The notes beneath the pieces were generated by a model. It was not told the origin of the DNA, ran no database searches, and saw nothing but the letters and a program-made list of their open reading frames with translations. Position numbers and translations under genes: made by a program. A stretch of 64,000 nt of DNA from Parcubacteria group bacterium (lineage in GTDB: Bacteria; Patescibacteriota; Minisyncoccia; Moranbacterales; UBA2206). Positions 7,776 through 39,105 of the stretch are shown in pieces; the stretch's first letter is position 1, and each line of letters begins with the position of its first letter. The DNA lies in NCBI GenBank assembly GCA_041661275.1, contig JBAZUU010000003.1, positions 25,586 through 89,585 on the forward strand, in the 5' to 3' direction.

Positions 7776-7815
7776 AAGAAAGATAATAAACCCGACAAAA
7801 TTCATAGGAGAAGAG

Positions 7816-7998: not shown

Positions 7999-8039
7999 AG
8001 TTTATGTTAAATTTGGCATAAATGTGATAAAATAAATTT

Positions 8040-13919: not shown

Positions 13920-13923
13920 AACT

Positions 13924-22475: not shown

Positions 22476-22493
22476 CGTTAAAATAAAAATAAA

Positions 22494-22897: not shown

Positions 22898-22980
22898 GGG
22901 TGTGTCGCATAGTGGCAATTGCTCCTGACTGTAAATCAGGCGTCCTACGGACTTCGCAGGTTCGAGTCCTGCCGCACCCA
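22898..22980 (+). tRNA. tRNA-Tyr (anticodon GTA, long variable arm)
   Basis: Acceptor gggtgtg/cgcaccc. Anticodon stem-loop cctga-ctgtaaa-tcagg. Variable arm cgtcctacggacttcg. T-arm gcagg-ttcgagt-cctgc. Confidence 0.8.
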
Positions 22981-23013
22981 CATAAAATAAATAGTTTGCC
23001 GTTGTTTCGATGT

Positions 23014-23473: not shown

Positions 23474-23547
23474 GCGGGATTCGTACAGTGGTAGTACATC
23501 GGTCTCCAAAACCGACGACGTAGGTTCGATTCCTACATCCCGTGCCA
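23474..23547 (+). tRNA. tRNA-Trp (anticodon CCA, CCA end encoded)
   Basis: Acceptor gcgggat/atcccgt. D-arm gtac-agtggtag-tac. Anticodon stem-loop tcggt-ctccaaa-accga. T-arm gtagg-ttcgatt-cctac. Discriminator g, then cca. Confidence 0.8.
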
Positions 23548-25137
23548 ACGTGTAATCAGCGAGCTTAATTGCTCGCTTTTTACTTTGTTAGAGCCACTTT
23601 CTCTCGGTTCTAACCCTTCATATTCACTATGCAAGGCAGGATACTTGTTTGTGATAGGCACAAACCAATCTTTGGCTTGAATGGCGGATATTTTGTCTTT
23701 TATGGCGTGGTTCGAGCCTAAATGCAAAATAAGCTCTCGTTTGCCCTCAAGGTCTCTTTTGAGAAATTCATTATGGGCGTAAGCCGCAAAAGAAAATGTC
23801 TTTTCCGTGAGCTCCAGCGTTTTTTCTTTGTTTTCTTCGGCGTGTTTCAGTTTATCCTCAAACTGGGCGATATTTTTCTTTAGCGTTTCCCGTTCAACTA
23901 CAAATTCATCATCGGTAATCAAATTTTTATAACGCATAGCCGTGAGGCTGGCAAGCTGATTTTTAGTTTCCGAAAGCGTTCTCTCTTGCATCTCTTTTAT
24001 TTTCTTCTCGTTATCAATCTCGGTGCCCTTTTTACTTTCGATAACTTCCAACGCCCAAGACAAAAATTCGGGAATCATTTCGTATTTTTCCAGTTCATAT
24101 TCCAGTTGCTCAAAAAGTTTTCTTTCCTCTAAAACTTTATTCTGCGTGCATTTTCTTTTTTTACTCTTTCTGGTGCAGTGATAATACGTATAGGCTCTTA
24201 GCTCGCCCGTGCTTTTAATGAGTTTATATTTTGTCTCTGCGGTATACATACAGCCACATTCCGGACAGCGGAACAAGCCAGTGAAAGGGAAATGGTGTTT
24301 TTTGGGTCTGGGTTTTCCCGCTCGTCCCAAAATGGCTTGAGCTCGGTCATATTCTTCGAGCGTTATCATTGGGGTGTGTTTTCCTGGATATTGTATGTTA
24401 TTGTGTTCGATAATTCCTGCATAAAAGATATTGGTAAAAATTTTATACATACCGCTCATTGCTAATGGCTTGTCTCCTAATCTCTTTTTCTTTATTGTCC
24501 GGAATCCCCATTCATTATTGAGCTTATTAAGGACTTGAGGCACTGTGTAATCACCAGTAAGCATTAAATCCCAAGCTTTACGAAGCAATCTGAATCGCAA
24601 TGGGTCTATTGGCATTGTGTGCGTTGCCAAATCATTTAAATAGCCTGTAGGTGCCATTCCAGGTCTCCACCCATCCTCTCGTTTCTTCTGGTTTCCTCTT
24701 TTAACAACCGTGCTTAAATCTCGAGAATACTGGTTAGCCATTCCACTTTCAACACTAAAAAGCAATACATTGTCCTCGGGTTTGTATTCCTTTTCTATTG
24801 TTTGGATTGATTTAATAACTCCTTGTTGCAAGAGCCAGCTTATTTTCCCGCTGTCTATTGGATTTCTGGAAAGACGGTTAAGGTGCCAGCATAAAATGCC
24901 ATCCGCCTCTCCACTTTCAATTCTTTTTATCATCTCATCGAATAGGGGACGATTGTTCGGTTTTTTGGCGGACTTTGATTCTTTGTAGGTATTCTTCACA
25001 TTAAAGCCCCTGTCCTTGGCTAATCGCTCCAGGCTTCCAACTTGGTCTTCGATTGATTGCACCTGGCGGTCTTCGCTTTCTGAAGATTTTCGAGCGTAGA
25101 GAAAATATTTTATTTCTTGCGGTTTAGTTGTTGCCAT
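23533..25137 (-). CDS. Large serine recombinase (phage/ICE integrase type)
   Basis: 534 aa. N-terminal resolvase catalytic domain (YARKSSESEDRQVQSIEDQ with catalytic Ser). Recombinase domain, zinc ribbon (CPECGC...YYHCTRK), C-terminal coiled coil. Confidence 0.8.
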   Translation of the reverse strand: MATTKPQEIKYFLYARKSSESEDRQVQSIEDQVGSLERLAKDRGFNVKNTYKESKSAKKPNNRPLFDEMIKRIESGEADGILCWHLNRLSRNPIDSGKISWLLQQGVIKSIQTIEKEYKPEDNVLLFSVESGMANQYSRDLSTVVKRGNQKKREDGWRPGMAPTGYLNDLATHTMPIDPLRFRLLRKAWDLMLTGDYTVPQVLNKLNNEWGFRTIKKKRLGDKPLAMSGMYKIFTNIFYAGIIEHNNIQYPGKHTPMITLEEYDRAQAILGRAGKPRPKKHHFPFTGLFRCPECGCMYTAETKYKLIKSTGELRAYTYYHCTRKSKKRKCTQNKVLEERKLFEQLEYELEKYEMIPEFLSWALEVIESKKGTEIDNEKKIKEMQERTLSETKNQLASLTAMRYKNLITDDEFVVERETLKKNIAQFEDKLKHAEENKEKTLELTEKTFSFAAYAHNEFLKRDLEGKRELILHLGSNHAIKDKISAIQAKDWFVPITNKYPALHSEYEGLEPRESGSNKVKSEQLSSLITRWHGM

Positions 25138-25249
25138 ATGATTATTATAATAATTTATTACTGATATAATTTTACCAAAAACGATTAGTTAAATTACATT
25201 TCAGGAAAAATGTGAAAAATTTTTGGAAAATTTATTGATGTTTTCATTA

Positions 25250-26002
25250 TCAACGAAAAAGTCGACTAAAAATATCCGGAGGCTCTTTTACGGGTATTAT
25301 TTTTTTCTTATGACGTAACTGCTCGAGTTTTTGTGTAATTTCTTTCATCCCGAGGATTCCACCCACGCCCCTAATTTCATTGATAGCCAGTTTTATATCT
25401 TCTTTCTTATAATATGTCTTATAAAATGACAAAGCCTTATTGGTTTCAGATTCTTCTGTATTTATTTTTTTTGGCTCGATTTCATCATATGATTTAATCC
25501 TATGATTTACAGGGTCAAATTCTACCTTAGTTGCGAGTTCATTTTGACTCTCTACCTTGTCCATTTTGACACTAGGCTCCAGATAGATGTTTTCCTTTTC
25601 AAAGCCAGGAAGCTTTTTCCAGACGGAAGTATCCAGAAGATAATAATTATTTACCATTCTTTTTCCAGGACGATTTACAAAAATCAGGTTGTACCTCTCA
25701 AGTTCTTTTAAGCCCTTCGATACGTACCGATTGTTGCAAATCCCGCCCTCTCTAACGATTTTTTCCATTCCTGGGAAGCACGCCTGAGTTTTTGCGTTAG
25801 CGTGTTTTGCTAATGAAAAATAAACCAGCGTAGCGTGCTTCGAAAGATTTTTGGCGTATCCCCATTCGTAATACTCATTGTCCACAAAAAATCTCTTTTG
25901 CTTGCCCTTTCTTCTAATCGGAAAATCAGGAGAAAACCCTCCGTGAGTCATTTTGAAAGCGGTGCTTCTGATTATTTTGTCTATACGTTTTATTTCACTC
26001 AT
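25250..26002 (-). CDS. HTH (winged-helix) DNA-binding protein, replication-initiator/HTH_36-like
   Basis: LVYFSLAKHANAKTQACFPGMEKIVREGGICNNRYVSKGLKELERYNLIFV resembles plasmid/phage HTH replication proteins. Confidence 0.4.
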   Translation of the reverse strand: MSEIKRIDKIIRSTAFKMTHGGFSPDFPIRRKGKQKRFFVDNEYYEWGYAKNLSKHATLVYFSLAKHANAKTQACFPGMEKIVREGGICNNRYVSKGLKELERYNLIFVNRPGKRMVNNYYLLDTSVWKKLPGFEKENIYLEPSVKMDKVESQNELATKVEFDPVNHRIKSYDEIEPKKINTEESETNKALSFYKTYYKKEDIKLAINEIRGVGGILGMKEITQKLEQLRHKKKIIPVKEPPDIFSRLFR

Positions 26003-26193
26003 ATTATTTTCATTTCCCGCCGCCTTTTTTGTAATAGCTTAAATTCCCGTTCCATCATCGGTTTATAAGTAAGCTCGACCTCACGTACAAGGCTTTCTGC
26101 CTGTTCGTGAGCCTCACTTAAATCAAGCTCCTTCCCGAGAAGCTCTCTATATAAAATCTGAAATTTTTTGATTTGTTTATCGGATAACGACAT
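25999..26193 (-). CDS. Small hypothetical protein (64 aa)
   Basis: ORF track. 4-nt overlap with the downstream gene. Confidence 0.35.
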   Translation of the reverse strand: MSLSDKQIKKFQILYRELLGKELDLSEAHEQAESLVREVELTYKPMMEREFKLLQKRRREMKII

Positions 26194-26311
26194 TTTTTGA
26201 AAATTAAAAATAGGCTATGTTTCAAGCCTACTTAAATTAAAAATGATTGTCGTTCTAGTCCGAGTGTTTCTTACATTTCTATGTGAATTTCTTAATACTT
26301 CTTAATGTTTC

Positions 26312-27001
26312 TTACTCGTCGATGTTTTTTAATTTTGCAATCCCTTCAGCAAGTTTATCTGGGTCTATGCTAAATTCTTCTATTTTATCTTTGGGAATGA
26401 AATTTCTAAATTTTACAGCATTCATTGAAACCTCAAAAAATAATTTCCGTATCTCATTGTTAAATCCAAGGTCGTTTAATATATGATGAAAGTCTTTTCC
26501 GATGGTCGCTTTCTCATTTTTTTCAATTTCATCCCTACGAATCAGTCTGTTGGGATTGCAAAAGACGTAGTTAAAAAAGTGGTCATTTTCTGACTCAAAG
26601 TTCGGCTTAGAAAGTTTATATTTATCATCCAGCGATATAGTTCTGTCTTCTTTGATGCTTATGTAATGACAATCCTTTTTGTTTATACGTCTTTCAAATT
26701 TTATTCCGTGTTCTTCACATAATTTGTCAAACCCAGGGCTTATTATTTTAATATCATACCAATTCGTTTTATTTTTATTTGCCTTTGCTCCATTTCTTGA
26801 TTTTTTTCTGCTCAAAATTTTTATAGCCTCAAAAACTTCTAAAACTTTTTCGACTATGTCTCTCTGGGTTTCTGGAAGTGGGTCTGTTTCTTGCGTATCA
26901 ATCTTGTACCACGTCCTGTCGCTTATTTTGGGATAATTTTCAAAATTATTTACAATTTTTTCAAGTACCCATTTTCTTTGTCGGGCTGATACTGAACTCA
27001 T
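26312..27001 (-). CDS. Hypothetical protein
   Basis: 229-aa ORF. No motif recognised. Confidence 0.45.
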   Translation of the reverse strand: MSSVSARQRKWVLEKIVNNFENYPKISDRTWYKIDTQETDPLPETQRDIVEKVLEVFEAIKILSRKKSRNGAKANKNKTNWYDIKIISPGFDKLCEEHGIKFERRINKKDCHYISIKEDRTISLDDKYKLSKPNFESENDHFFNYVFCNPNRLIRRDEIEKNEKATIGKDFHHILNDLGFNNEIRKLFFEVSMNAVKFRNFIPKDKIEEFSIDPDKLAEGIAKLKNIDE

Positions 27002-27269
27002 ATTTTTTATATTATTATTGATTCTTATATCCTTAACTTACCTCAAATCCGCCTTAAAATCAACTGAAAAACTTGATATTCTGGCTTTTTTGTAGTATCT
27101 TATAAGTGTTCACCTGCAGCAAATTTTTCGTGAGGAAAACTGCCTTTTCTATCCGATTACGGGTAGTAAGCGGCGGTCGAGTTCCATAATCGGACTTCCT
27201 CACGGATTGTCTGTTGTGGGTGAACGGCTCGGTCGTCGCTTTTTGTTTTGGCTAAATATTTATTTTAAT

Positions 27270-27842
27270 ATGATGAAAACTAAAATTCTGCCGATTATCA
27301 TTGGTTTAGGAATCGGAGTCGTAATATCTCCCGTCCTGGGAATGGCAATCAGCCCAACTAGAAATCTAATTATGAAACTGGCTCCCCAAGAAGCTATCTT
27401 GAGCTTGGCAGATAAAATCAAACAAAAGGAGACGAGCGAACAACAAAAATTAAGTTCTGAAGAAAAAGTCCAAGAAGTAATTCAGGAATCACAACCTGCA
27501 GAAAGTATTACGGAACCTCGACAGGAAATTATTCCCGCAGTTCAATCAGAAAACGACAAGGGACAGATAGAAGCCTGCCAAAATGCCAAAACCGAATGTG
27601 AGAAAAAAATAAAAAATATCAATAATGAAATAGATGATTTGGAAAACCAGGTCAAGGAGCAAGAAAAATTATATGGTGAAGCCAAAGAAAAGTATGGAAA
27701 CAGTACGAGCGACGGAGAGATAAAAATGTTGAAATATCGTGAGGCTATGTTGAAAAAATCAGAAGGAGATTTGAAATCCAGAAAGAAAGAGCTCCAGAAT
27801 ATCACTGGCGGAGAATGTAAAAATTATAATAAAACTTGTTAA
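27270..27842 (+). CDS. Membrane-anchored/secreted coiled-coil protein
   Basis: Start MMKTKILPIIIGLGIGVVISPVLG (TM/signal) within ORF-track ORF 27207. E/K-rich coiled coil. Confidence 0.45.
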   Translation: MMKTKILPIIIGLGIGVVISPVLGMAISPTRNLIMKLAPQEAILSLADKIKQKETSEQQKLSSEEKVQEVIQESQPAESITEPRQEIIPAVQSENDKGQIEACQNAKTECEKKIKNINNEIDDLENQVKEQEKLYGEAKEKYGNSTSDGEIKMLKYREAMLKKSEGDLKSRKKELQNITGGECKNYNKTC

Positions 27843-27846
27843 AAAA

Positions 27847-28239
27847 ATGAATCCACACTTTCAAAAAATAGGCGATGTTTTCCTAAATATTTCCAAAATT
27901 TGGGCTGGCGGGTGGGTTGTTATTATAGTCGCGTCTTTTCTAATAAATTCTGATAGCGATTTTATTCAAAATTTTTCGATACTGGATTTTTTCATTTTTT
28001 TAACCTTGGCATTTAGTCCATATATAATCATTAAAATAATAAAAATCGGGATGGAAAACAAAATAATAAATAACCAAGCAAAAAAGTATTGGCTGGTTTT
28101 AATTTTTATATTGATTTTTGGAGTTATTTTTTATTGGTTTGAATACCGACCAAGCCAGGCAAGAAAACAATGTTCCGCAAAATCATTCAGCGATAACTTA
28201 TATAAAAAATGTTTGCGGGAAAAGGGCTTGGAAAAATGA
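27847..28239 (+). CDS. Small multi-pass membrane protein
   Basis: 130 aa with three hydrophobic segments. Confidence 0.45.
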   Translation: MNPHFQKIGDVFLNISKIWAGGWVVIIVASFLINSDSDFIQNFSILDFFIFLTLAFSPYIIIKIIKIGMENKIINNQAKKYWLVLIFILIFGVIFYWFEYRPSQARKQCSAKSFSDNLYKKCLREKGLEK

Positions 28240-28694
28240 GCTATAAATCAAGCCAGTTTTACTTTTTATCTCTTTTGCTCTATATTTAAGGCACTTCACA
28301 AAGAAATCGAAACAAAGTATCCCGAAGGGAAGCGGACAGGAAACTGACCCAGAAGCCATATAAAATACCAGCGAGCATTAGTTCTTTTGTCGCCCTTGGC
28401 GAATAAGTCTCGCAGTATTTCCAATGAGAAGGTTGTCATCTTCTCACCGCACCGACCAAAAAGACGCTGGAAAGAATAATCCGCCGTAGGAGGAAAAATC
28501 TCAGCCTCGGGGTGTATCGAACGGTGCTAACATCCCCTAGACCAAGTAAAGGCCACTGCTTGTTTCGCAGAACAGTTCCATATCCTTACACGGGCAACCG
28601 TAGATGTAGGGTTATAGTTTATTTGTCCCAATTTAGCTTTTTGAGCTATATAGCTTTTTATACAGTTAATCCAATAAAGCCTTTGGCAACAAAA

Positions 28695-29402
28695 ATGCTT
28701 AGGAAAAAGCTATTAAGCAAAAAAGGGGCGATTTTGTCTCTTATTCTACTTTTTGGCATAATCGCAGTTATTTTTCTTTGGAATTATGAATTTAAGCCGG
28801 AAGAGAAACAGCAGATATGCCAACCGCTATTTTTGGAATACACCTTCGGCGATATTGATTCCCGCTTCAATCTGAAAAACGAAGAACTTATCGAAATGCT
28901 GAAAGACAGTGAGAAGATTTGGGAGGAACCGTTGGAATACGACGTTCTTCGCTACAATCCCGAAGCGTATTTTAAGATAAATTTTGTCTTTGACGAAAGA
29001 CAAGAATACGATATGCTCGAACAGGAATATTCCGAGCTTCAATATTCCCTCAATTTCTCGGAAAAAACCAAGAAAGAAACAGCAAAAATCCAAAAAGAAA
29101 TGGCTGTCATAGAAGCCAAGCAAGATTTGCTCTCCGATAAAATTTACAGCTCGGGAGAAAAATACGAGAAAGACGAAGCTTATACCCAGGGAGATTATAC
29201 GGGAAACTCCATCAATATTTATAATTTTGACGATAGGGATGAATTAGTAACGCTTCTCGCTCACGAGTTCGGGCACGCCTTGGAAGTTCCTGACAACCAA
29301 GACCCTGATTCGATTATGTGTGGGATTAACAGCGGACATTTTCGGCAGGCTACCCCAGATGATTTGGAAAAGGCGAAAGATTTTTGTGTAAGTTCAGAAT
29401 AG
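28695..29402 (+). CDS. Zincin-like metallopeptidase (HExxH) with N-terminal signal anchor
   Basis: HEFGHALEV...D..DSIMCG zinc-binding motif. Start at ATG 28695 (MLRKKLLSKKGAILSLILLFGIIAVIF); ORF track extends upstream to 28512. Confidence 0.5.
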   Translation: MLRKKLLSKKGAILSLILLFGIIAVIFLWNYEFKPEEKQQICQPLFLEYTFGDIDSRFNLKNEELIEMLKDSEKIWEEPLEYDVLRYNPEAYFKINFVFDERQEYDMLEQEYSELQYSLNFSEKTKKETAKIQKEMAVIEAKQDLLSDKIYSSGEKYEKDEAYTQGDYTGNSINIYNFDDRDELVTLLAHEFGHALEVPDNQDPDSIMCGINSGHFRQATPDDLEKAKDFCVSSE

Positions 29403-29449
29403 ATTTTTCGACATATAGCTTACAGTATTGAGAAATCTAAAAAAGTAAA

Positions 29450-30727
29450 ATGGACATACTTAGAAAGCCAATAAATTCATTTGGTCATAGCGATATAGTA
29501 TCTTTTTGTCAGGAAAAAAATCCTGAAGGTGTCCAGTTGGATTATAAGAAGGAACTTCCTCAAAGAGGCCTTGCTAAACATTTTGCCGCATTTTCAAATA
29601 CCAGAGGCGGTGTATTGATAATCGGGGTCGAGGAGGATAAAAAATCAGGATTTCCAGTTATGTGGGACGGAATCGAAGGAGATGCAAAAATGATTGAAAA
29701 AATTCACCAGGAAGCAAGTAATGTTGAGCCGATTCCTTCGTATGAAGTGCACGCTACCGATAAAATTGACGGCAGAAATTTTATTATTATTAGAATATTT
29801 GAAGGAGACAAAACTCCTTATTATGTCCAAAATGATTCTAATGTTTGGGTAAGGACTGGAAACATAAGTAATCCTATTGATATTGCCTCTCCAGATGGAT
29901 TGGAGTTGTTGTTTGGAAAAAAGGAAAAAGCTGAAAAGGCTAGAAATAATTTTTTACTGATAGGCAAGGAATTACACGAAGCGGCGATTGAGAAAGAAGA
30001 GAAAAAAATAAGAGAAGGATGGAAAAAAGAAATAGAAAAAGAAGGAGGTACGACTATTTTTAGATATGAAAAAATAATCGGAATTGATGATGCGATATGC
30101 AAAATAACACTACAGCCATATTTTCCAAGTAAATCACTTGTAGCTCCAAAAGAAATTAAAGACAATATTGATTCAATCCGCTTTAGAAATGGCAATTTTA
30201 CATTTCCGCAGTTAAATGTCGAGCCATCACCAAAAGGAATAAGATATTTTTCTTATCAAAGAAGCAGAGAAATACTTGAATCTCAGATAGTTCTTGGACA
30301 AGGACTAATTCAAAATATTTTTACAGTTTCAAGGAAAGGTCAGGATGAAGAACCTAGAATAATAAGCCTCCAAGCAATCGCCACTAGAGTTTTTGGAATA
30401 TTTAGATTTGCCGATAAATTCTACAATAAATACGGCTATCAGGGAGTGCTCATTGGAAGTATAGAAATAAGCGGGGCTGAAGATGCTCTAGCCAGAAGGA
30501 TAGTGCCATCGGGTATGGATTTTTGGGATAATGATAAAATAAAAGATAGCTTGCTGTCCGATTATTTATGGGAAATAAAAATTGATACAAGGATATTAAA
30601 AGAAAAGGATAAACTGAAAAAATATTACGAAGAAGTTCTGGAAGAAATTTATTGGGATTTTGGTTTTGAAGAATTTGGCGAAGGTGTTATTGATAAATTT
30701 TTTAAAGATAGCGGGTTCACATTCTGA
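29450..30727 (+). CDS. AlbA_2/Schlafen-like (divergent AAA, putative DNA-binding) domain protein
   Basis: N-terminus VQLDYKKELPQRGLAKHFAAFSNTRGGVLIIGVEED follows the AlbA_2 (PF04326) pattern E..lE.K......l.k.i.AfaN..GG.l.iGv.d. Confidence 0.5.
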   Translation: MDILRKPINSFGHSDIVSFCQEKNPEGVQLDYKKELPQRGLAKHFAAFSNTRGGVLIIGVEEDKKSGFPVMWDGIEGDAKMIEKIHQEASNVEPIPSYEVHATDKIDGRNFIIIRIFEGDKTPYYVQNDSNVWVRTGNISNPIDIASPDGLELLFGKKEKAEKARNNFLLIGKELHEAAIEKEEKKIREGWKKEIEKEGGTTIFRYEKIIGIDDAICKITLQPYFPSKSLVAPKEIKDNIDSIRFRNGNFTFPQLNVEPSPKGIRYFSYQRSREILESQIVLGQGLIQNIFTVSRKGQDEEPRIISLQAIATRVFGIFRFADKFYNKYGYQGVLIGSIEISGAEDALARRIVPSGMDFWDNDKIKDSLLSDYLWEIKIDTRILKEKDKLKKYYEEVLEEIYWDFGFEEFGEGVIDKFFKDSGFTF

Positions 30728-31006
30728 TGATTTATCAAGGTCAATTTCAGGGGGTAATTTTGGTTCATATTACATTTTTAATACCCACCTCTTCATAGAA
30801 GGGTTTGAAATCTTAATAGAATCTGGAATATCTGATAGCTAAACTCCAGATTATAATTTCCGCGAAAATGTTGACAAAATGCCGAAAGTGTTATACGATA
30901 GCACATCGGTTCTTTTTATTTCTATGCGGGCTATAAATGGCTGAAATCCATTAAAAATATAGGTGACTTCAACATCAGAAAAAAAACCAAAAGGAGGCAA
31001 GTAATT

Positions 31007-31885
31007 ATGAAATCCGTAAAAACAGTAATGATACTGGCGGAAGAAAAAAGGAAGCGTGCAGATGTTCTGGCTCAACAGGCCAAGGACATTTACACCGAAG
31101 TCAGTCAGGATTGGAACAACATTGCCCAACGTATCAGGGATGGAGAAACCTCGGGCGACCCGCTCAAGGATTTTATCGCCACAAGGTATTTCGCATTCGA
31201 CGAAAAAACCGAAGAGCGTTTCCGTGCCCTTCAAGCAAGGTTCAAGAATTTTCAAGGGCAATATGCAATGCTGGTGCGGGTAAGTAAGGAGAGGAGTCAC
31301 GCACATAGCGATAATTTCGTCGAAAAAACGGAGTTGAGCGTCGGTGTCCTCAGCGGAGACTCATTTATCCTTGACCCGCCTCAGGCACTGTTCTGGTTTC
31401 CTACGGGCGGTAAGAATGCCGTTTGCTACGACCGCTTCAATCAAAACCCCGTTTATATGCGTGAGGGCGACCTGACTCTTCCGCTCCTTGAAGATATGGG
31501 GCTCAAAACATCGTCTGAACTGCAAATCCTCATCGGAGACGAAGAAGTTGCTGGCTGGTTTGAGGAACAGCGTGGTGAAAATTATTTCAAGGTTTTTTGT
31601 GGCTTCAATGCAGTTCTGGGCAGGTCAGTGATACATCCCAGGCTCTCGGTCTATCTCAGCAAAAAACGGGACGAGTGGCTTAAGGAACACGACGCCTTGA
31701 AAGCCAAGAAGGTCTGGCTGGAAGCCGAGTGCAAGCGACTCAAGAAGCCAGGCGTAACCGACGGCAGTGTGGTCAAAATGGAAAAAGAAATTCAGGAAAT
31801 TCCCGAAAGGATAAAGGCCATCATCTCTGAGGCTTCTGGCTGGGGCGTCAATGACCTGGACTGGGAAAACGCCACCGCAGCCTAA
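31007..31885 (+). CDS. Hypothetical protein (gene 1 of a GC-rich three-gene cassette)
   Basis: 292-aa ORF. SD aaaaggagg before ATG. Promoter-like ttgaca-N17-tacgat at about 30873-30901. GC markedly higher than flanks. Confidence 0.5.
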   Translation: MKSVKTVMILAEEKRKRADVLAQQAKDIYTEVSQDWNNIAQRIRDGETSGDPLKDFIATRYFAFDEKTEERFRALQARFKNFQGQYAMLVRVSKERSHAHSDNFVEKTELSVGVLSGDSFILDPPQALFWFPTGGKNAVCYDRFNQNPVYMREGDLTLPLLEDMGLKTSSELQILIGDEEVAGWFEEQRGENYFKVFCGFNAVLGRSVIHPRLSVYLSKKRDEWLKEHDALKAKKVWLEAECKRLKKPGVTDGSVVKMEKEIQEIPERIKAIISEASGWGVNDLDWENATAA

Positions 31886-32101
31886 CGCAGTCCATTACAG
31901 CCCGTGTTTTTTGGAGAAGGAACACTACCGTTCCTTCTCCCCATTTCTAAGTTTGGCAGTAAATGGTAAATTTGGATGATGGATTAAATAAAGTTCTTTT
32001 TAGCGATATGACTTCGGGATGAAGTCATATAAAAAATTATTAACTCGATAGTAAGCGGGATGCTTCCTATCATAACCAGCTAAAAGCTGAAGGAGTTTGT
32101 G

Positions 32102-32662
32102 ATGAGCACTATGTCCGAAAAAAGAAGAGATGCGTTTTTTGAGGAATTTCCTTGGCTCAGCAAATATGTAAAGTTGAAACACAGGAAATATATCAGAAGC
32201 ATCAAGGTGTCCAGAGCGGATAAAGACTTACTCGGAAGAACTGCTTTGTCTGAGTTTATCGACAAAGGCGAGGACAGCTACTATATTTTCGAGCAACTCG
32301 TCCTTCTTGATGAAAATGGCGACATCCTAAAGCGAGAACTTCCCTCAGAGGATTTCAGTATCTGGAGACCTTGCACCTGGAGAAGGCATCGTTTCATTGT
32401 TGGCAGAGTAACCGAACCTCATACTGTTGCAGAATGTATTGTTAGTCTCGGTTCTGAATCTGAAAGGATTGCGTTTATCTTTTCTGTTTTCTGTAATAAC
32501 CTTGTAATCTACAAGCCTCCCAAGAAGTTTAATATTCAGACGCTTCTAGAAGAGGTTGAAGAAGATAAGAGACGGGAAGCGGAAGAAGAGAAGAAAAAAG
32601 AAGCAGAAATCTTTGATGCTCAAAAACAATCTATCCGAAAAGAATGGGAATCGCTGGATTAA
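32102..32662 (+). CDS. Hypothetical protein (gene 2 of the GC-rich cassette)
   Basis: SD aaggag then ATG 32102. K/E-rich C-terminus. Confidence 0.45.
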   Translation: MSTMSEKRRDAFFEEFPWLSKYVKLKHRKYIRSIKVSRADKDLLGRTALSEFIDKGEDSYYIFEQLVLLDENGDILKRELPSEDFSIWRPCTWRRHRFIVGRVTEPHTVAECIVSLGSESERIAFIFSVFCNNLVIYKPPKKFNIQTLLEEVEEDKRREAEEEKKKEAEIFDAQKQSIRKEWESLD

Positions 32663-32681
32663 CTAAAAAGGAGAACCTTCT

Positions 32682-33041
32682 ATGGTTGCCGAGACGTGGA
32701 CAGTTTCAACTGAGGACAAGCTCGGGTTTAGGATGTATCCTCTTCGGGACGAGAAACGCCAGTTTCCTGATATGGTGCCTGTGAGCATACACATTGGTAA
32801 GTTTTCCTGTCGTGGATATGTGCCCAGCGAAGAATACGACGGGCATTACGAGTCGCCGTATGCGGAACTCATCGTTAAATATGACAGTTCCGAAAGGATG
32901 CAACCCGACCTGACCAAGTGGAATTTCCAGAAGATGTCCTGCTGGCTGACAAAGGACGCTGTAGCCTATTCGCTCTATATCAAGAAGCAGAAATTGGAGC
33001 GGTTACGAACTTACCTGCGAAATTCCTGCAGGCTTCCGTAA
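32682..33041 (+). CDS. Hypothetical protein (gene 3 of the GC-rich cassette)
   Basis: 119-aa ORF 19 nt after gene 2. SD aaaaggag. Confidence 0.45.
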   Translation: MVAETWTVSTEDKLGFRMYPLRDEKRQFPDMVPVSIHIGKFSCRGYVPSEEYDGHYESPYAELIVKYDSSERMQPDLTKWNFQKMSCWLTKDAVAYSLYIKKQKLERLRTYLRNSCRLP

Positions 33042-33070
33042 CAGCATCTTTCAGACAATCATTGACCAAA

Positions 33071-33110
33071 AGGCGGCACAGAGAACCATATTCTGCACCG
33101 CCTTTTTCTT
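33071..33110 (+). terminator. Rho-independent terminator closing the GC-rich cassette
   Basis: ggcggcacagagaaccatattctgcaccgcc hairpin followed by tttttctttt. Confidence 0.5.
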
Positions 33111-33148
33111 TTGAACGAAAAAAATTAAAAATTTTTATCTAGAAAGTT

Positions 33149-33200
33149 TTTAGAAGTATTTCTGGCTATGTCTCATTTTTATCCCCCCTCCCTCTTGTTA
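33149..33200 (-). pseudogene. 5' gene remnant A (SD GGGAGGGGGG plus ATG, ORF MRHSQKYF*), paralogous to remnant B
   Basis: Minus-strand ATG at 33173-33175 preceded by gggagggggg. About 85% nt identity with 36222-36272. Confidence 0.4.
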
Positions 33201-33225
33201 GGGGTTTGTGTTATAATTTGCTTGT

Positions 33226-34210
33226 GATGCTATCATTAGAAACTAAAACTAAAGAAATAATCGACAGTCTAGTCCGACTAGCTAGGGAAGTAGAAATTTG
33301 CAATGGAATGGGCTTTTTTGATGGCAATAAATGTGCCGAAGATTTTTTTAAGGGCATTTTGAACCGTGTTTATGACTGCAATCTTATCAATCTTAATTTG
33401 GAAAAAAATAATTTTCCAGCAGTTGACTTAGGCGATAAATCCAAGAGATTAGCAATTCAAGTTACAGCGAGCACGGGGAGAGCAAAAATTTCAAATTCTA
33501 TAACGAAATTTGTAAATCATAACCTCTACGAAACTTATAAAAAGCCAATATTCTTAATCATTGGAAAAAAGCCAAAATATTCCAAAAATTTCGATGCCGA
33601 CACGGAGGGAAAATTTATTTTCAACCCTTCTGAAGATATTTTAGATATTACCGATTTAATAAAAATAATTTCTTCTTTACCCGTTGAAAAAATCACAGAC
33701 CTTAATGAGTTTATTATTTCTAATGTTACCGACGTATTATCTATTGACCCGATTAAAATTAACGAGCAGGATATTAAAAATTTAATTCTAGGCATAAGAG
33801 ATGCTATAAATGACGATACCTCGTTTAAACAAAAATATTCCAGTGATATTCCGATGAGATTCCAGGATTATATTGTAGAAAAAAATAAACTAAACGAGAT
33901 AGATAAATTGTTTTTTGAACAGGTGTTCGCTAGAAGTCTCGCGTATAGCGATGATATTAAGAATTTTTTATCCGACCCCATAAACGCAGAGATAAAAGAG
34001 TGGTATTTTACTATTAGTAGTGAACTTCAGAATGAATATATAAAAAATAGAGATAATTTCGATTTGTTGGAATTTATAGACAAGATTTATGATAAGGTCT
34101 GTAGAAAATTTAAGGCGGATTTGTCATATGACAAAAGAAAAATTAAGGTAATGCTTCATTGTATGTATTTTCATTGTGATTTAGGAATAAATCCAGAGGA
34201 AAAAACATAA
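33226..34210 (+). CDS. Putative effector with SMEK-like/restriction-endonuclease-fold N-terminal domain (candidate ABC-3C C-component)
   Basis: Motif NFPAVDLGDKSKRLAIQVTASTG (D...QVT, PD-(D/E)xK-like). ATG 33226 preceded by tataat at 33211. ORF track begins at TTG 33206. Confidence 0.4.
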
Positions 34211-34452
34211 TGATAACACCAAATAAATATACAAATTTAGACTTATCAGTCTTGAATATCGGGGCTGAAATTGTTAAGGTGCTTCAGAAAAGCAGTCTTC
34301 TTAAATATGATGACCTGTTAAATCAGATTCTGCTAAAGAAGGGGAGGGGGGCGAAAGAAATTTTTGTCTATTCTTTAAATTTTTTATTTGTTCTGAATAT
34401 AATTAAATACCATAGTTCTGAGGATATAATCGAATTTTATGAAACTCGTTAA
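34210..34452 (+). CDS. Small protein (80 aa), candidate ABC-3C middle component
   Basis: Start overlaps the upstream stop (TAATG). Its end overlaps the downstream ATPase by 14 nt. Confidence 0.4.
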   Translation: MITPNKYTNLDLSVLNIGAEIVKVLQKSSLLKYDDLLNQILLKKGRGAKEIFVYSLNFLFVLNIIKYHSSEDIIEFYETR

Positions 34453-36199
34453 GATATATTCTAATATTTCCAGTATGAAGCCAGTTATTTTTAATTCTGG
34501 CTTAAATATAATATACGGCGATGTAAGTCAATATGAAGGAGACAGCAATGAGCATAATTTAGGAAAAACTTCGCTTGTCTACCTGATAGATTTTTTGTTA
34601 TTAAAAAAAATAGATAAAAATAATATATTTAGGAAAAGAAGGAGTAATTTCTTAGGCTGGGATTTTTATTTGGAAGTAGAGCTGGATGATAAATCATACC
34701 TTACGATTAAAAGAAATCTGGTTAATGATTCCAGAATATCAATTAAGCTTCATAAGGAAGGAAATCAGGACTTGTCGTCGGAGGTGTTTTGGGACTATAA
34801 AGATAAATCAATAAGTGCGAAAAAAGAAGAGGAAAATGCGGTTAAGATTTTGAAAAATATATTGAAATTCGATGTCTTAAGCGAATATAATTTGAGGCAT
34901 TTTCTTTCCTATCTTCTAAGAACCCAAAATGATTATGCGGATGTTTTTAGATTAAGCACGTTCAAAAAAGACAAAAACTGGAAGCCACCCCTTCTTTCTC
35001 TATTTGGATATAACGGACAACTATTTGAGAAGAAGTATGATTTAGAGCAGGAAATTTCTATCCGTAGAGAATTGATTGCAAAAATGAAGTCGGATAATCT
35101 CATAGAGAAATCAGAGGAAGCTTTCAAATTACAAGCTGCCATTAAGGCTAGGGAGGATGAAAAGAAATCAATAGAAAAAAATCTTGAAATGCTCAATTTT
35201 TTTACCAGGGATGAACAAATGACGGAAAAAATAGTGAAAGAATTTGAGACAAAAATTAGTATCCTAAATTCTGAGGAATATAGCCTAAAATACGAGGTCG
35301 ACAAGATTAATAAATCATTGGAAAATAATGTTTCCGTTAAAGTTTCTGATGTTAAAAAGATATATGAAGAGGTGGAAATATTTTTTCCAGATAAGCTTAC
35401 TAAATCTTATGAGGAATTAGCCAATTTTAATAAGCAAATTTCAGACGAGAGGTCAAAATACCTAAAAAAAGAATTGGACAATCTGAATGATAGGCTGATG
35501 ATTATTAAAAAAGACCTCAAGGAATATAATGATAAGTTATCAGAAGCCTTATCGATAATAAAGGAGAAAGATGCATTTATAAAATTTAGGAAATATCAAA
35601 ATGAGCTTATAAAAATAGAAACAGACATTGCCATATATAAACAAAAAATTGAGAGTATAGACACTATAGAAAATTATAGTAATGCGATTAGCGAGATAAG
35701 AGAAAAATCCAAAGAAATATCCTCAATAATTAAGGGGGATTTGGCGGAAGAAAAAAATCCATTGCAAGAAATACGTGAGATGTACACTGAGATTTTTAGA
35801 AAAACTATGGATGGAACTGCTACTTTCGCAATAACTCCAAATAAATATGGTTATTTTGATTTTGAGCCGTTTGTAATAAGCGGCGGTGATTTAACAGGGC
35901 AGGGAGATGGATACACCGCTACAAAAGTTCAATGTGCCGCGTTTGTTATAGCGGCATTGGCTTACTATTCAAAAAATTCTTTTTATAAATTTGCCTATCA
36001 CGATGGCATTTTTGAGGGCTGGGGAGATAATCCTAAGATAAATTTTATCAATCTAATTAGGGAATATTGTGATAAATATAAAATTCAGTATATCGCAAGT
36101 ATGATAAAAAGTGATATTCCCAAAAACTTTGATTTTGAAAAAGAAGAAATAATAATTACTTTAGACAAAAACCAGCCATTATTTGGTATCAAATTTTGA
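34439..36199 (+). CDS. SMC/ABC-type ATPase with long coiled-coil insert (candidate ABC-3C ATPase)
   Basis: N-terminal head KLVKIYSNISSMKPVIFNSGLNIIYGDV...NLGKTSLVYL (RecF/SMC-like Walker A). Roughly 230-aa heptad-rich coiled coil. C-terminal head with FAYHDGIFEGWGD (Walker B/D-loop-like). Confidence 0.5.
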   Translation: MKLVKIYSNISSMKPVIFNSGLNIIYGDVSQYEGDSNEHNLGKTSLVYLIDFLLLKKIDKNNIFRKRRSNFLGWDFYLEVELDDKSYLTIKRNLVNDSRISIKLHKEGNQDLSSEVFWDYKDKSISAKKEEENAVKILKNILKFDVLSEYNLRHFLSYLLRTQNDYADVFRLSTFKKDKNWKPPLLSLFGYNGQLFEKKYDLEQEISIRRELIAKMKSDNLIEKSEEAFKLQAAIKAREDEKKSIEKNLEMLNFFTRDEQMTEKIVKEFETKISILNSEEYSLKYEVDKINKSLENNVSVKVSDVKKIYEEVEIFFPDKLTKSYEELANFNKQISDERSKYLKKELDNLNDRLMIIKKDLKEYNDKLSEALSIIKEKDAFIKFRKYQNELIKIETDIAIYKQKIESIDTIENYSNAISEIREKSKEISSIIKGDLAEEKNPLQEIREMYTEIFRKTMDGTATFAITPNKYGYFDFEPFVISGGDLTGQGDGYTATKVQCAAFVIAALAYYSKNSFYKFAYHDGIFEGWGDNPKINFINLIREYCDKYKIQYIASMIKSDIPKNFDFEKEEIIITLDKNQPLFGIKF

Positions 36200-36203
36200 T
36201 TTT

Positions 36204-36272
36204 TTAAATAAGAGGTTTCAGGAAGGATTTCTGGCTAAGCCTCATATTTTAGACCCCCTCCCCCCATTCGGC
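36204..36272 (-). pseudogene. 5' gene remnant B (SD GGGGGGAGGGGG plus ATG, ORF MRLSQKSFLKPLI*), paralogous to remnant A
   Basis: Minus-strand ATG at 36243-36245. Peptide MRLSQKSF vs MRHSQKYF in A. Confidence 0.4.
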
Positions 36273-36325
36273 GGGTTTGGAGTCAGCTTTTTATAAAAAA
36301 TATAATAGTGGGTAGGGGATAGCGA

Positions 36326-36517
36326 TTACTGATGATTTTTTCTTAGGTCAGGTATGTAAATATACTCTTTTTTGTTCTCAAAGATAGTTATGACTTCCTC
36401 TACAACTGCGTGCCAGTCAAAACAAGGCTTATTTAGGCCTTGTTTTTGTATGGGGGTGGTAGGATGTTCGAACTGGCCGGCAAGCCGTTGACTTATGGCT
36501 GATTTTATGCAAGTATA
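36326..36517 (-). pseudogene. 3' gene remnant C1 (63 codons, no start; ends ...WHAVVEEVITIFENKKEYIYIPDLRKNHQ*)
   Basis: Codon-by-codon minus-strand translation from stop at 36326-36328 up to the in-frame stop at 36518-36520. Paralogous to 37980-38087. Confidence 0.45.
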
Positions 36518-36606
36518 TTAAGTCATAGCTCTTTTACAGGCAAAAAGCAGGCTACAGGCAGTAGCCAGAATTGCACCGGCTGATTATCAGAAAAAGGAGA
36601 ATAGGC

Positions 36607-37221
36607 ATGCAGGCGAGAATTAAAGGCTTTGTAGTAGGAGCCGACAGACCCTTTGAGGGTGGCGTCAGAGGCAAAAAGGTTTGGAAAGTCCGAGTCAAGG
36701 ATGAAAGTCACGAAGACAACGGCAAAAAGTTTGAGGTTGCCGAAGGCCATTGGAAGAGATTTTTTTCCAAAGGGCTTGATGTGACATTTGAACTCGGAAA
36801 TTTCCAGGAAGGCGGACAGGCAGTTCGCAAAGCTATCAATGTCAAGTTGTTAGACAACAAAACGGAAGCAAAGGAGCTTCCAATGGAAAAAGCGAAAATT
36901 GTCCAAGACCCTGACACTCTGTACGTGCTTATCACGGAATGTCGCGGCGAACTCAGCGTCTACTTCACTGGCTTTGAGACCGAGGAAGAAGCGGTTGCAT
37001 TTTTTATCAAGGAAACTGGCGAGAATGAAGCGGATTCGGAAAAGGTTGTTTGTTTTATTCCCTTCAATATCTATGATTGGACAGAAGACGCTCTTGATCC
37101 TGATATTGTAAATGGATTCGCGGTCGTTCGTTCTCTCGTAGGTATTACTTCCGCTCAGGAAGCCTTGGAAAAAATGATGACTGTTATTCTCAGGTCTTTT
37201 GCTACCAGAAAGGAAGAATAA
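36607..37221 (+). CDS. Hypothetical protein (gene 1 of a two-gene cassette)
   Basis: SD aaaaaggagaatagg then ATG 36607 (MQARIKGF...). ORF track starts at 36571. Confidence 0.45.
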   Translation: MQARIKGFVVGADRPFEGGVRGKKVWKVRVKDESHEDNGKKFEVAEGHWKRFFSKGLDVTFELGNFQEGGQAVRKAINVKLLDNKTEAKELPMEKAKIVQDPDTLYVLITECRGELSVYFTGFETEEEAVAFFIKETGENEADSEKVVCFIPFNIYDWTEDALDPDIVNGFAVVRSLVGITSAQEALEKMMTVILRSFATRKEE

Positions 37222-37222
37222 C

Positions 37223-37891
37223 ATGCGTATTCTGGTCATTGACGATACTCAGGGACATCTCGATGCGGCTCGACAAACTCTTTCAGGGCACGACCTTACT
37301 CTTTGCTCTTCTCATGACGAAGCTGTTAAGCTTCTCCTTTGGAAATACGATGATAATGAGAAGAGTCAAAGAATCAAGCAATATGAATCAGAAGGTCTGA
37401 AGTGGACTGATGCCTACGAAAAGGCGGAACAGGAAACAAGATTGCCCTATTGGGAGGTCGTTCTTTGTGACCTGCTCATGCCTGCTGGTAGCAGAGAACA
37501 GGGTTCGGGTCGTCATTTAGTTGGTCAAGAAATGGCTGTTGGTTGGTCACTCGCTTTGCAGGCAGTAAAAAACGGTGCCAACTATGTAGCCGTGATTACT
37601 GAATTAAATCATCACCAACATCCTGCTAGTGCCATGATTGATAAAATCAATGGGCACATTTTCACCATTGACAATGCTAAAATGCTCATGACCAATTACG
37701 TCGAAACCGTTGGTATTAAGGGTACCGAGGGTAAATGTATTGAATGCGGTGGTACTGGCAAGCACAGAAAGTGGGGATATGAAGATAATTGCCACTTCTG
37801 CAAAAACGGCATCGACTTTTTGGTAAAGGGCAAGGATTGGGGTAAGATTCTCAACCTGCTTCTCACAGGAAAAAGCATCGATGACGAATAA
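37223..37891 (+). CDS. REC (CheY-like receiver)-like domain protein with C-terminal zinc ribbon
   Basis: MRILVIDD start and VVLCDLLMP (phospho-acceptor-like D). C-terminus CIECGGTGKHRKWGYEDNCHFCKNG. Confidence 0.4.
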   Translation: MRILVIDDTQGHLDAARQTLSGHDLTLCSSHDEAVKLLLWKYDDNEKSQRIKQYESEGLKWTDAYEKAEQETRLPYWEVVLCDLLMPAGSREQGSGRHLVGQEMAVGWSLALQAVKNGANYVAVITELNHHQHPASAMIDKINGHIFTIDNAKMLMTNYVETVGIKGTEGKCIECGGTGKHRKWGYEDNCHFCKNGIDFLVKGKDWGKILNLLLTGKSIDDE

Positions 37892-37892
37892 T

Positions 37893-37955
37893 AGTGTGGA
37901 CTGAGCAGACCTACTGCTCCTGCCAAGGCGAACGCTTTGGCAGTTTTTTATTTAT
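37893..37955 (+). terminator. Tandem hairpins plus T-run after the two-gene cassette
   Basis: ctgccaaggcgaacgctttggcag followed by ttttttatt. Confidence 0.45.
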
Positions 37956-37979
37956 ATAGTGAGCGACACAGTGGGGTAG

Positions 37980-38087
37980 CTATACATTTAAACTCAAATC
38001 AGGAATATAAATATACTCTTTTTTATTCTCAAAAATAGTTCTAACGTCCTTTACTAAGGCGTGCAAATATCCTAAAAATGGCTCTAA
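37980..38087 (-). pseudogene. 3' gene remnant C2 (35 codons; ...LEPFLGYLHALVKDVRTIFENKKEYIYIPDLSLNV*)
   Basis: Minus-strand translation. In-frame stop immediately upstream. The C-terminal 20 aa match C1. Confidence 0.45.
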
Positions 38088-38180
38088 TTAGCCATTTTTT
38101 GTTGGGTAGGCACGCAGCTGGGGTTATGTTAGGCTAAAAACGTGAAAATACCATATTTATTCTTCTTTTTCACGGTTATG

Positions 38181-38217: not shown

Positions 38218-39105
38218 ATGACAAAAACACTCAATGTCTACAATAAAATAAGTTTTCTTCGTGAAAGATATTATAAAGCGTCTATTGGTAAAGAAGCGCT
38301 TATTAAACTTATTGCTGAAACTGAAATTGCCGAGCAGGTATATAACTCGAATGCAATAGAAAACAGCACGCTCACGCTTGAAGAAACTGAAAAAATACTC
38401 CTTCAAATTGATCTGGACAGATATATAACTGAACGAGAAATTTTTGAGGCTAAAAATCTAGCGAGAGTCGTGTCGTATATTAGCAAGAGGGCCAAGGAAC
38501 AAGAGCTTGCTCTTGAGGTGATTTTGTCGCTACACAAGATGCTGATTTCTAATATTCGTGATGATATTGCGGGAAGATTCAGGCGTGACAATGAATTTGT
38601 TCGAGTTGGAAATTATATCGCTCCTGGTCCGCAAGAAGTGTTGGGTCGTCTTGAAAAAATGTTAAATGAATATAACGCGGAAAGTCATGAAAATATTATC
38701 AAACGCATAGCAAGATTACATCTTGCTTTTGAGCATATTCACCCTTTCTGCGATGGTAATGGACGAATCGGGCGAGTAATTAATAATTATTTGCTGATGC
38801 GAGAGGGATTTGTTCCAATAAACATAAAATTTATTGATAGAAAAAAATATTACGAAGCATTTAAAGAATTTGACGTGAAAGGCGCGACTGCTGTCATGGA
38901 GGAAATTGTAGGAAAGGCGTTGACCAATAGTTATTACAAGCGTTTGGCCTATTTGGAGGGAAAGGAAATTATCACCCTGGCTGATTATGCGAAAAAGAAT
39001 AAAATTTCTCACTCGAATCTTATTAATAAAGCAGGAAGACAAACTATCGAAGCTTTTTTAGAAAAAGGAATTTGGAAGATTGGCGTCGATCATAACGGAA
39101 AATAA
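38218..39105 (+). CDS. Fic family protein (AMPylase/Fido domain)
   Basis: HPFCDGNGRIGR is the Fic motif HPFx(D/E)GNGR. Confidence 0.8.
   Translation: MTKTLNVYNKISFLRERYYKASIGKEALIKLIAETEIAEQVYNSNAIENSTLTLEETEKILLQIDLDRYITEREIFEAKNLARVVSYISKRAKEQELALEVILSLHKMLISNIRDDIAGRFRRDNEFVRVGNYIAPGPQEVLGRLEKMLNEYNAESHENIIKRIARLHLAFEHIHPFCDGNGRIGRVINNYLLMREGFVPINIKFIDRKKYYEAFKEFDVKGATAVMEEIVGKALTNSYYKRLAYLEGKEIITLADYAKKNKISHSNLINKAGRQTIEAFLEKGIWKIGVDHNGK

Follow-up and report, generated by a model that had tools for sequence, protein, structure and literature searches.

What kind of system is encoded by three tightly overlapping genes in an AT-rich block of a bacterial genome from the candidate phyla radiation (CPR, or Patescibacteria), and why is it carried on a mobile island? 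The stretch of DNA considered here (the window) comprises 64,000 nucleotides of contig JBAZUU010000003.1 from a Parcubacteria group bacterium (assembly GCA_041661275.1), and the three-gene operon in question occupies positions 33227–36199. A preliminary description, made from the sequence without database searches, had proposed a candidate conflict system resembling the ABC (ATP-binding cassette)-three-component (ABC-3C) systems, which were reportedly described by Krishnan et al. in 2020. Profile searches assign all three genes to ABC-3C-associated families (SMEK_N and CTD12 for gene 1, MC8 and MC6 for gene 2, DUF2326 for gene 3), and the cautious wording of that proposal (‘candidate ... -like’) understates their membership. 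With a probability of around 85%, we conclude that the three genes form a complete Lamassu system of the short type (type II; equally an ABC-3C system) and of the SMEK-effector subtype, with the gene order lmuA–lmuC–lmuB and carried as island cargo in a CPR genome. The assignment draws on family membership, protein folds, intact family-conserved residues, obligate linkage of the three genes, purifying selection and carriage on an island.

The architecture has already been named. ABC-3C has been equated with type II Lamassu, the LmuA, LmuC and LmuB subunits corresponding to DdmA, DdmB and DdmC (10.1101/2025.06.23.660979), and the LmuA effector types already listed include SMEK (10.1101/2025.06.23.660979; 10.1101/2025.04.02.646746). 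Haudiquet et al. consider SMEK, HNH and lipase domains to be effectors specific to short Lamassu (10.1101/2025.04.02.646746). SMEK-type short Lamassu is therefore a catalogued architecture of which the operon is a further example. Its interest lies in being a clean and complete SMEK-subtype system, under purifying selection, in a group of bacteria whose defence repertoire has been little studied.

Organisation of the operon

The features of the operon are as follows.

33227..34210, plus strand: gene 1, LmuA-type effector, 327 aa; SMEK/Mrr-like PD-(D/E)xK nuclease domain at aa 10–148, CTD12 helical domain at aa 175–320
34210..34452, plus strand: gene 2, LmuC-type middle component, 80 aa, MC8/MC6
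34439..36199, plus strand: gene 3, LmuB-type SMC/Rad50-like ABC ATPase, 586 aa, DUF2326/YydD family
33209..33217, plus strand: putative extended -10 element TGTTATAAT

The open reading frames (ORFs) and their overlaps are as first described: all three genes lie on the plus strand, the stop codon of gene 1 and the start codon of gene 2 share a TAATG (CATAATGATA at 34206–34215), and a further overlap, of 14 nt, joins genes 2 and 3. The start of gene 1 had been placed one base too early, at 33226, in a frame that contains 45 stops; the first ATG is at 33227, with a TTG six codons upstream being a less likely start. The block is indeed very AT-rich, with a GC content of 0.306 in the cassette versus 0.396 in the window minus its islands. 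The tataat box reported upstream is found within TGTTATAAT, which ends 9 nt ahead of the gene 1 ATG and keeps the same spacing in the related locus L003. There is no -35 box with TGTTATAAT in the sequence upstream of gene 1, which explains why the element was missing from a generic promoter scan. Its distance of 9 nt from the ATG, together with its conservation in L003, makes a leaderless or near-leaderless mRNA plausible.

Gene 1: a SMEK nuclease domain joined to CTD12

Gene 1 matches two Pfam families, SMEK_N (3.2e-44, aa 10–148), which is also confirmed by NCBIfam, and C-terminal domain 12 of ABC-3C systems (CTD12; 1.6e-14, aa 175–320). The restriction-endonuclease-fold/SMEK signature that first drew attention to the gene, NFPAVDLGDKSKRLAIQVT, corresponds to residues 62–80. 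As anticipated, the N-terminal domain has a PD-(D/E)xK (restriction endonuclease, REase) fold, with every family-conserved residue present. Its best match in the PDB (4e-22 over 152 residues) is a homologous domain of solved structure, the Mrr/SMEK nuclease of the Kordia Mrr-APAZ prokaryotic Argonaute (pAgo) system, and the conserved pattern D-L-x-D...Q-x-T...K is common to gene 1 and the Kordia jejudonensis SMEK/Mrr-APAZ domain. The C-terminal domain matches Bacillus subtilis YydB structurally (9a6c_B, probability 1.0). Target DNA is reportedly cleaved by a SMEK-APAZ/short-pAgo complex (PMC10810196). The SMEK domain of gene 1 would be a DNA-degrading nuclease.

The Kordia match, and a best PADLOC match to the Argonaute-associated REase model Aga_REase-PNTD1-PNTD2 (1.6e-43, N-terminal half), might mark gene 1 out as what remains of a short-Argonaute (SMEK/Mrr-APAZ) system, or as a partner of one, but this is refuted by the domain architecture of the protein. 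The Argonaute-type matches span only residues ~7–172, and the C-terminal half is CTD12, not APAZ; whilst the Kordia sensor consists of APAZ and a nucleic-acid-guided pAgo, that of the window operon would consist of CTD12 and the SMC-like ATPase. No Argonaute or APAZ family is seen in the precomputed Pfam annotations from the island to ~48 kb, nor in Pfam scans of ten neighbouring ORFs. SMEK domains are, moreover, found in many settings: in a library of 1.84 billion cluster representatives, ~1,470 protein clusters match gene 1 at E<=1e-10, mostly via the SMEK domain alone, with lengths of up to ~1,450 aa and with the domain fused to many different partners. Near-full-length matches are found in ~30 of the top 150 clusters, consistent with a SMEK+CTD12 architecture.

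Genes 2 and 3: the middle component and the ATPase

The 80 aa product of gene 2 matches two Pfam families of ABC-3C middle components (MC), MC8 (8.5e-10) and MC6 (1.5e-8). For gene 3, DUF2326 is the sole Pfam family above threshold (5.6e-16, on the C-terminal head), and the NCBI entry for the exact protein is likewise named as a DUF2326 protein; it comes from a Parcubacteria-group MAG, in which the window is equal to contig JBAYID010000003.1 (GCA_041665805.1). The PADLOC candidate defence model PDC-M68B matches gene 3 from end to end (5e-50), whereas genes 1 and 2 match no PDC-M68 model; PDC entries in PADLOC are untested defence candidates.

In an AlphaFold (AF2) model of gene 3 (pLDDT, the predicted local distance difference test score, 87.6), the N- and C-terminal heads form a split ABC head and are joined by antiparallel helices (193–457). 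The length of 586 aa and the two heads given in the preliminary description therefore stand, whilst the coiled coil is longer than noted there, at ~265 rather than ~230 aa. The top PDB match of this model in Foldseek is B. subtilis YydD (9a6c_A, 5e-23). Ranking just below YydD, within the first ten entries and beside Smc, Rad50 and Smc5/6 heads, are LmuB chains from type II Lamassu (9uxh_F, 1.2e-13) and from Salmonella (9hqu_A, 7e-12), with further Lamassu matches to 9hqx_B (6e-11) and 9ux7_A (2.5e-9), the last being LmuB in an LmuAB–DNA complex that has two components, as does the type I system described in the same preprint. The protein possesses a Walker A motif (HNLGKT, K43), a Q-loop (Q163) and a Walker B motif (FAYHD, D522); K43, Q163 and D522 are invariant in 90 homologues, and G523 and E526 nearly so. 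Gene 3 contains no CxxC zinc hook.

Could gene 3 be a housekeeping repair ATPase of the SMC/RecN/SbcC type whose neighbours are there by coincidence? Foldseek also matches the model to the heads of Rad50, SMC, Smc5/6 and JetC, with E-values of 1e-7 to 1e-11. Nevertheless, this explanation is effectively refuted. No SMC_N, RecN or SbcC match is found in Pfam and no family at all in NCBIfam, the gene 3 model comes closest to YydD and LmuB, and there is no Mre11/SbcD-type or kleisin partner beside the gene. Gene 3 lies instead inside a low-GC island and is invariably linked to genes encoding MC8 and CTD12 proteins.

Linkage and selection across homologous loci

This linkage was seen in a genome scan for gene 3 relatives that returned 80 loci from many phyla (28–97% identity), 76 of which were analysable; the sample is biased towards the query’s relatives. 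The same gene order recurs. Each of the 76 analysable loci has a gene 2 homologue (~76–96 aa) as the nearest upstream neighbour of the ATPase gene. Most of these pairs overlap by 4–14 nt, the extremes being an overlap of 29 nt and a gap of 9 nt. The C-terminal half (CTD12) of gene 1 is matched by 73 of 75 upstream ORFs; in Pfam scans of the upstream genes, every one of the 72 ORFs of effector size had CTD12, and of the 58 genes scanned for the middle component, 57 had MC8. The co-occurrence that the preliminary description had put forward as a check on its proposal is thus close to universal in the sample. Names assigned to the relatives point the same way, with ‘SMEK domain-containing protein’ and ‘ABC-three component system protein’ in NCBI and ‘YydD (DUF2326 family)’ in JGI.

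It is the N-terminus of the effector that varies whilst CTD12 remains constant: among the 72 effectors, SMEK_N is present in 16 and Mrr_cat in eight, the remainder having an Mrr-like N-terminal motif (DGGRDA...IQAKH) that falls below the Pfam threshold. The SMEK subtype is found in loci L003–L015, L042 and L060, and nine of these 15 come from CPR genomes. The DUF2326–MC8–CTD12 clade is a tight three-gene unit that mostly carries Mrr-type nucleases, SMEK being a swapped-in relative. Comparison with L003, the closest relative, gives ratios of non-synonymous to synonymous substitution (dN/dS) of 0.098 for gene 1, 0.041 for gene 2 and 0.034 for gene 3. With values of 0.03–0.10, all three ORFs, including that of only 80 aa, are real genes under purifying selection.

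Two side observations concern the wider family. The ATPase homologue of locus L016 (Gracilibacteria, 7001–8779) has no single ORF under translation table 11, which is as expected if the lineage reads TGA as glycine (code 25), and we make no pseudogene call. Five IMG/VR viral contigs (L203–L207) encode DUF2326 ATPase relatives with 34–35% identity; phages or prophages may thus be further vehicles for systems of this clade.

Comparison with known systems

With respect to ABC-3C systems as represented in Pfam (CTD1–12, MC1–8), there is no material difference: all three component families are above their gathering thresholds and in the canonical order. The short Lamassu systems of Vibrio cholerae (DdmABC) and Salmonella (LmuACB) have the same effector–middle–ATPase gene order, an effector whose toxic domain is N-terminal and which docks through a helical C-terminal domain, and an ATPase of ~600 aa with a short coiled coil that, as in the V. 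cholerae clade, lacks a zinc hook. The gene 3 model matches their LmuB chains (9uxh_F, 9hqu_A), and SMEK is a listed effector. The operon differs from these two systems in having SMEK rather than Cap4, CTD12 rather than CTD7 and an MC8 protein of 80 aa rather than an MC3 protein of at least 149 aa, in addition to a D-G Walker B motif. The CTD/MC nomenclature has itself been applied to Lamassu subunits, with CTD12 in BcLmuA, CTD7 in VcLmuA and MC3 in VcLmuC (10.1101/2025.06.23.660979).

CTD12 is also the C-terminal domain of LmuA in the type I Lamassu of Bacillus cellulasensis (LmuAB), whose LmuB fold matches gene 3 (9ux7_A, 2.5e-9). That system has lost LmuC and has a Cap4 nuclease and a zinc-hook LmuB, whereas here an MC8 gene always accompanies the ATPase, which lacks a CxxC. 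The nearest structural matches of all, for gene 3 and for the C-terminal domain of gene 1, are YydD and YydB of the B. subtilis YydB–YydC–YydD system (integrative model 9a6c), although identity is only 15–16%. The match to YydB, a protein of 481 aa, extends over 155 aligned columns, roughly the size of the CTD12 half of gene 1, so that the N-terminal parts do not correspond. The N-terminal domain of YydB is a metallophosphoesterase, not a nuclease. The literature searched contained no account of the function of YydBCD.

Points against the assignment

Several observations weigh against reading the locus as a working short Lamassu system. Sequence and profile searches of genes 1–3 against the PDB matched no solved Lamassu chain: genes 2 and 3 gave coiled-coil noise only, and a CTD12-containing effector profile matched only the Kordia Mrr domain. 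The link between gene 3 and LmuB comes entirely from the fold comparison. The LmuA, LmuB and LmuC models of PADLOC v2.0.0 did not match genes 1–3 at E<=1, the only match being that to PDC-M68B. A Lamassu census based on DefenseFinder does include SMEK effectors (10.1101/2025.04.02.646746), and for this reason the PADLOC result probably reflects the model set rather than biology.

Other points concern the proteins themselves. Gene 2, at 80 aa, is much shorter than V. cholerae LmuC (at least 149 residues). The SMEK motif of gene 1 is Q-x-T rather than (D/E/Q)-x-K, with K87 as a putative relocated lysine. Short LmuB proteins are described as being ~600 aa in length, with 0–2 zinc hooks and a Walker B motif of the form hhhhD[Q/S/T/E] (10.1101/2025.04.02.646746); that of gene 3 reads hhhhD-G, with E526 three residues further on, and departs from this pattern. 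With a D-G Walker B, ATP hydrolysis by gene 3 may be weak or absent. Our search of the literature found no paper reporting an experimental test of a SMEK-type or DUF2326-type system.

Taken to its extreme, this evidence would make the cassette a decaying or inactive one, with a dead ATPase (Walker B D-G, no His switch) and a non-functional system. The atypical position of the catalytic base after Walker B and the replacement of Q-x-K by Q-x-T in the nuclease are what such decay might look like. Both D-G and Q-x-T are, however, invariant or nearly so across the clade, neither being private to the copy in the window, and the ORFs are intact, overlapping and under purifying selection (dN/dS 0.03–0.10). 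We consider decay very improbable and retain the assignment to short Lamassu.

A proposed mechanism

How might the system work? Cryo-electron microscopy has revealed an LmuA1B2C1 complex (A1B2 in type I) that is activated by DNA ends, upon which LmuA is released as an active tetramer (10.1101/2025.06.23.660979). The following scheme, including its stoichiometry, DNA-end trigger, effector release and oligomerisation, DNA substrate and anti-phage activity, is modelled on the solved Lamassu complexes of V. cholerae (Vc), Salmonella (Se) and B. cellulasensis (Bc). Two LmuB subunits would pair via their coiled coils, with one LmuC and the CTD12 of one LmuA docked on the coiled-coil region, an arrangement that would hold the SMEK nuclease in a monomeric, inactive state. 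Sensing would fall to the LmuB heads, with LmuC: they would recognise free ends of phage or plasmid DNA, or intermediates of its replication, in a step modulated by the binding or turnover of ATP. Once released, LmuA would oligomerise, allowing its PD-(D/E)xK-type SMEK domain to degrade DNA non-specifically and so bring about abortive infection. The D-G Walker B motif and the 80 aa LmuC make this clade a useful minimal comparison for studies of the Lamassu mechanism.

The carrier island and its split recombinase

The ends of the island that carries the operon are marked by the following features.

23474..23547, plus strand: tRNA-Trp gene (ARAGORN, Rfam), the integration target on the side of the left attachment site (attL), with core CGTGCCA at 23541–23547
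23533..25137, minus strand: large serine recombinase (Pfam Resolvase, Zn_ribbon_recom), its translation ending in LITRWHGM and a stop
36326..36448, minus strand: right attachment site (attR) side (repeat E2a), detached recombinase 3′ end WHAVVEEVITIFENKKEYIYIPDLRKNHQ and stop (36415 down to 36326), core CGTGCCA at 36409–36415
36420–36448: hairpin terminator after the attR core, probably the original terminator of the tRNA

The last five codons of the recombinase gene, including the stop (TGG CAC GGG ATG TAG), are the reverse complement of the 3′ end of tRNA-Trp. The recombinase gene thus ends within the tRNA gene, where its native C-terminal tail is missing. This native 28-aa tail (AVVEEVITIFENKKEYIYIPDLRKNHQ, then a stop) is found 12.9 kb away at the other end of the island, after a CGTGCCA core that is common to both junctions (23541–23547 and 36409–36415). 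It is encoded on the minus strand of one copy of a repeat, D2, whose copies lie at 36300–36450 (E2a, encoding WHAVVEEVITIFENKKEYIYIPDLRKNHQ and a stop) and 37950–38100 (E2b). Joined virtually (LITRWH + AVVEEV), the two parts give a product that aligns to an intact recombinase, that of locus L085, with no gap at the junction (47% identity, 1e-33). The large serine recombinases of L085 and L092 are intact, and the tail peptide forms their C-terminus without interruption. From the junction cores, the detached tail and the gapless join, it would follow that the Lamassu operon is the last cargo of the island and that the phage-type attachment site (attP) lies inside the recombinase gene. Judged by its junction sequences, the island spans ~23548–36415 (~12.9 kb) and appears to be inserted in the tRNA-Trp gene. 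Exact-protein look-ups of the flanking genes returned the same genome only and hence no island-free empty site.

Related elements are widespread. A 20-nt core pattern of the tail element is present in at least 120 metagenome contigs, at least 50 of which share homology over a wider element of ~75 nt. About 50 of 54 distinct tail copies are detached from any long ORF, and conservation over 50 unique copies shows a 3-base period. Readings of the E2 repeat as a small RNA, a promoter or a micro-ORF were rejected because of this period and because the peptide is the C-terminus of intact recombinases (L085, L092); a Rfam scan at gathering thresholds was empty, and E2a and the other detached copies have no start codon. 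The tail–cargo–recombinase layout is repeated in L128. In L014, a SMEK-Lamassu locus, a recombinase of 30% identity ends (STWLPG, stop) inside tRNA-Asn; a detached tail proposed there on the basis of a 10-nt repeat proved to be a chance match inside another gene. Several contigs (among loci L083–L202) hold more than one tail copy, with four in L139 and two each in L087, L089, L107, L119, L123 and L131.

We put forward, as a tentative proposal at somewhat short of even odds, that the Lamassu cassette is swappable cargo of a widespread and undescribed family of CPR islands in which the 3′ end of the recombinase gene itself contains the attachment site. Upon integration into the 3′ end of a tRNA gene, the last ~28 codons (VRTI..EYIYIPDL, then a stop) would be left behind at the opposite end of the island, and the reverse complement of the tRNA would complete the recombinase gene. 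The swap of tails could act as a built-in switch for directionality or stability. Archaea have ‘suicidal’ tyrosine integrases of the SSV type, to which such an enzyme would be the bacterial equivalent in the serine family; according to a 2021 review, no self-splitting integrase is known outside archaea or outside the tyrosine family. If confirmed, this would represent a new integration strategy in bacteria, and the detached tail would provide a marker for island ends and defence cargo in CPR genomes.

Carriage on an island raises a further question: is the operon there for the cell or for the island? The same machinery might serve mainly as an addiction, stabilisation or anti-plasmid module that kills cells losing the island or excludes competitors. 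The operon is the last cargo beside attR of a 12.9-kb serine-recombinase island, and serine recombinases lie 0.3–3 kb downstream of SMEK-type cassettes in L007, L009 and L014. Locus L003 has the same island skeleton, and the cassette is 91% identical between the two versus 74–84% for the other shared island genes (78–79% for the recombinase and Schlafen genes). The Lamassu superfamily also includes the V. cholerae DNA defence module DdmABC, which has been discussed as an anti-plasmid/phage system. On the other hand, the Lamassu systems tested so far protect against phages, and homologues are found in many chromosomal contexts across phyla. The two roles are not mutually exclusive and no evidence here separates them; we regard a mainly island-serving role as unlikely, and as distinctly less probable than that of a Lamassu defence system that happens to be island cargo.

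To the right of the island, 1.65 kb from E2a, E2b is a second and more diverged copy of the tail (HALVKDVRTIFENKKEYIYIPDLSLNV and a stop, core GTGCAA) with a hairpin of its own. It looks like an older attR, pointing to tandem accretion of islands; two attR-like sites, both with tRNA-terminator-like flanks, are hard to derive from a serine recombinase. The region between the two copies (36416–38066) encloses two unannotated ORFs, and the corresponding copies in L003 lie at 8870–9020 and 13900–14050. The ORFs at 36607–37221 and 37223–37891 are adjacent, with a single base between them in the calls made on the ENA contig, and overlap in longer versions with TTG starts. The second has a receiver-like start (MRILVIDD) and a zinc-ribbon-like end (CxxC...CxxC), and neither has a match in Pfam or PADLOC.

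Repeats and neighbouring genes

A second pair of repeats brackets the Lamassu cassette itself.

33122..33212, plus strand: repeat E1a, upstream of the operon, with a terminator-like hairpin (CCCCTCCC...GGGG, 33189–33204) followed by a T-run
36191..36282, plus strand: repeat E1b, the second E1 copy, directly after the operon

The direct repeat E1 (D4) is ~60–90 nt in length, its upstream copy being 73% identical to 36191–36249. Its 18-nt core, TTTCTGGCTANGNCTCAT, occurs exactly at 33159 and 36228, with one further match, with three mismatches, at 20687; each copy contains TTTCTGGCTA.G.CTCAT and a CCCCCTCCC...GGGG hairpin. In L003 there is an E1 copy upstream of the cassette and an E1-like sequence just downstream. 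E1 may be a terminator/promoter module or the footprint of cassette exchange, in which case the repeats could mark the exchange of defence cassettes between islands.

The operon had been placed inside a mobile island next to Fic and Schlafen-like genes. The Schlafen gene (29450–30727) is indeed in the same island, whilst the Fic gene (38218–39105) lies beyond the right-hand attachment site. The former encodes a 425-aa Schlafen/AlbA_2-domain protein (Pfam 1e-15) that is 76% identical in L003 and is a possible second defence gene; it has no PADLOC match. Between it and the cassette is a 2.4-kb segment (30757–33174) with a GC content of 0.44, above that of its surroundings, which is absent from the otherwise collinear L003 island and whose ORFs (31007–31885, 32099–32662 and 32682–33041) have no match in Pfam or PADLOC. 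Across ten neighbouring ORFs, Pfam and PADLOC gave SLFN_AlbA_2, a borderline Peptidase_M10 and otherwise sub-threshold matches only. Coiled-coil matches of ORF 27207–27842 to JetC/LmuB models (E~0.002–0.003) were taken as noise.

Further afield, a 132-aa ORF of the PDDEXK_5 family (22494–22892) lies in the tRNA cluster, between tRNA-Thr (22404–22476) and tRNA-Tyr (22898–22981) and just upstream of rpmG and tRNA-Trp. An ORF of high GC content (0.48–0.51) at 45783–47114 contains tandem DNA repeats of 33 nt and ~90 nt (families D1, D3 and D10) and may encode a repetitive, low-complexity protein.

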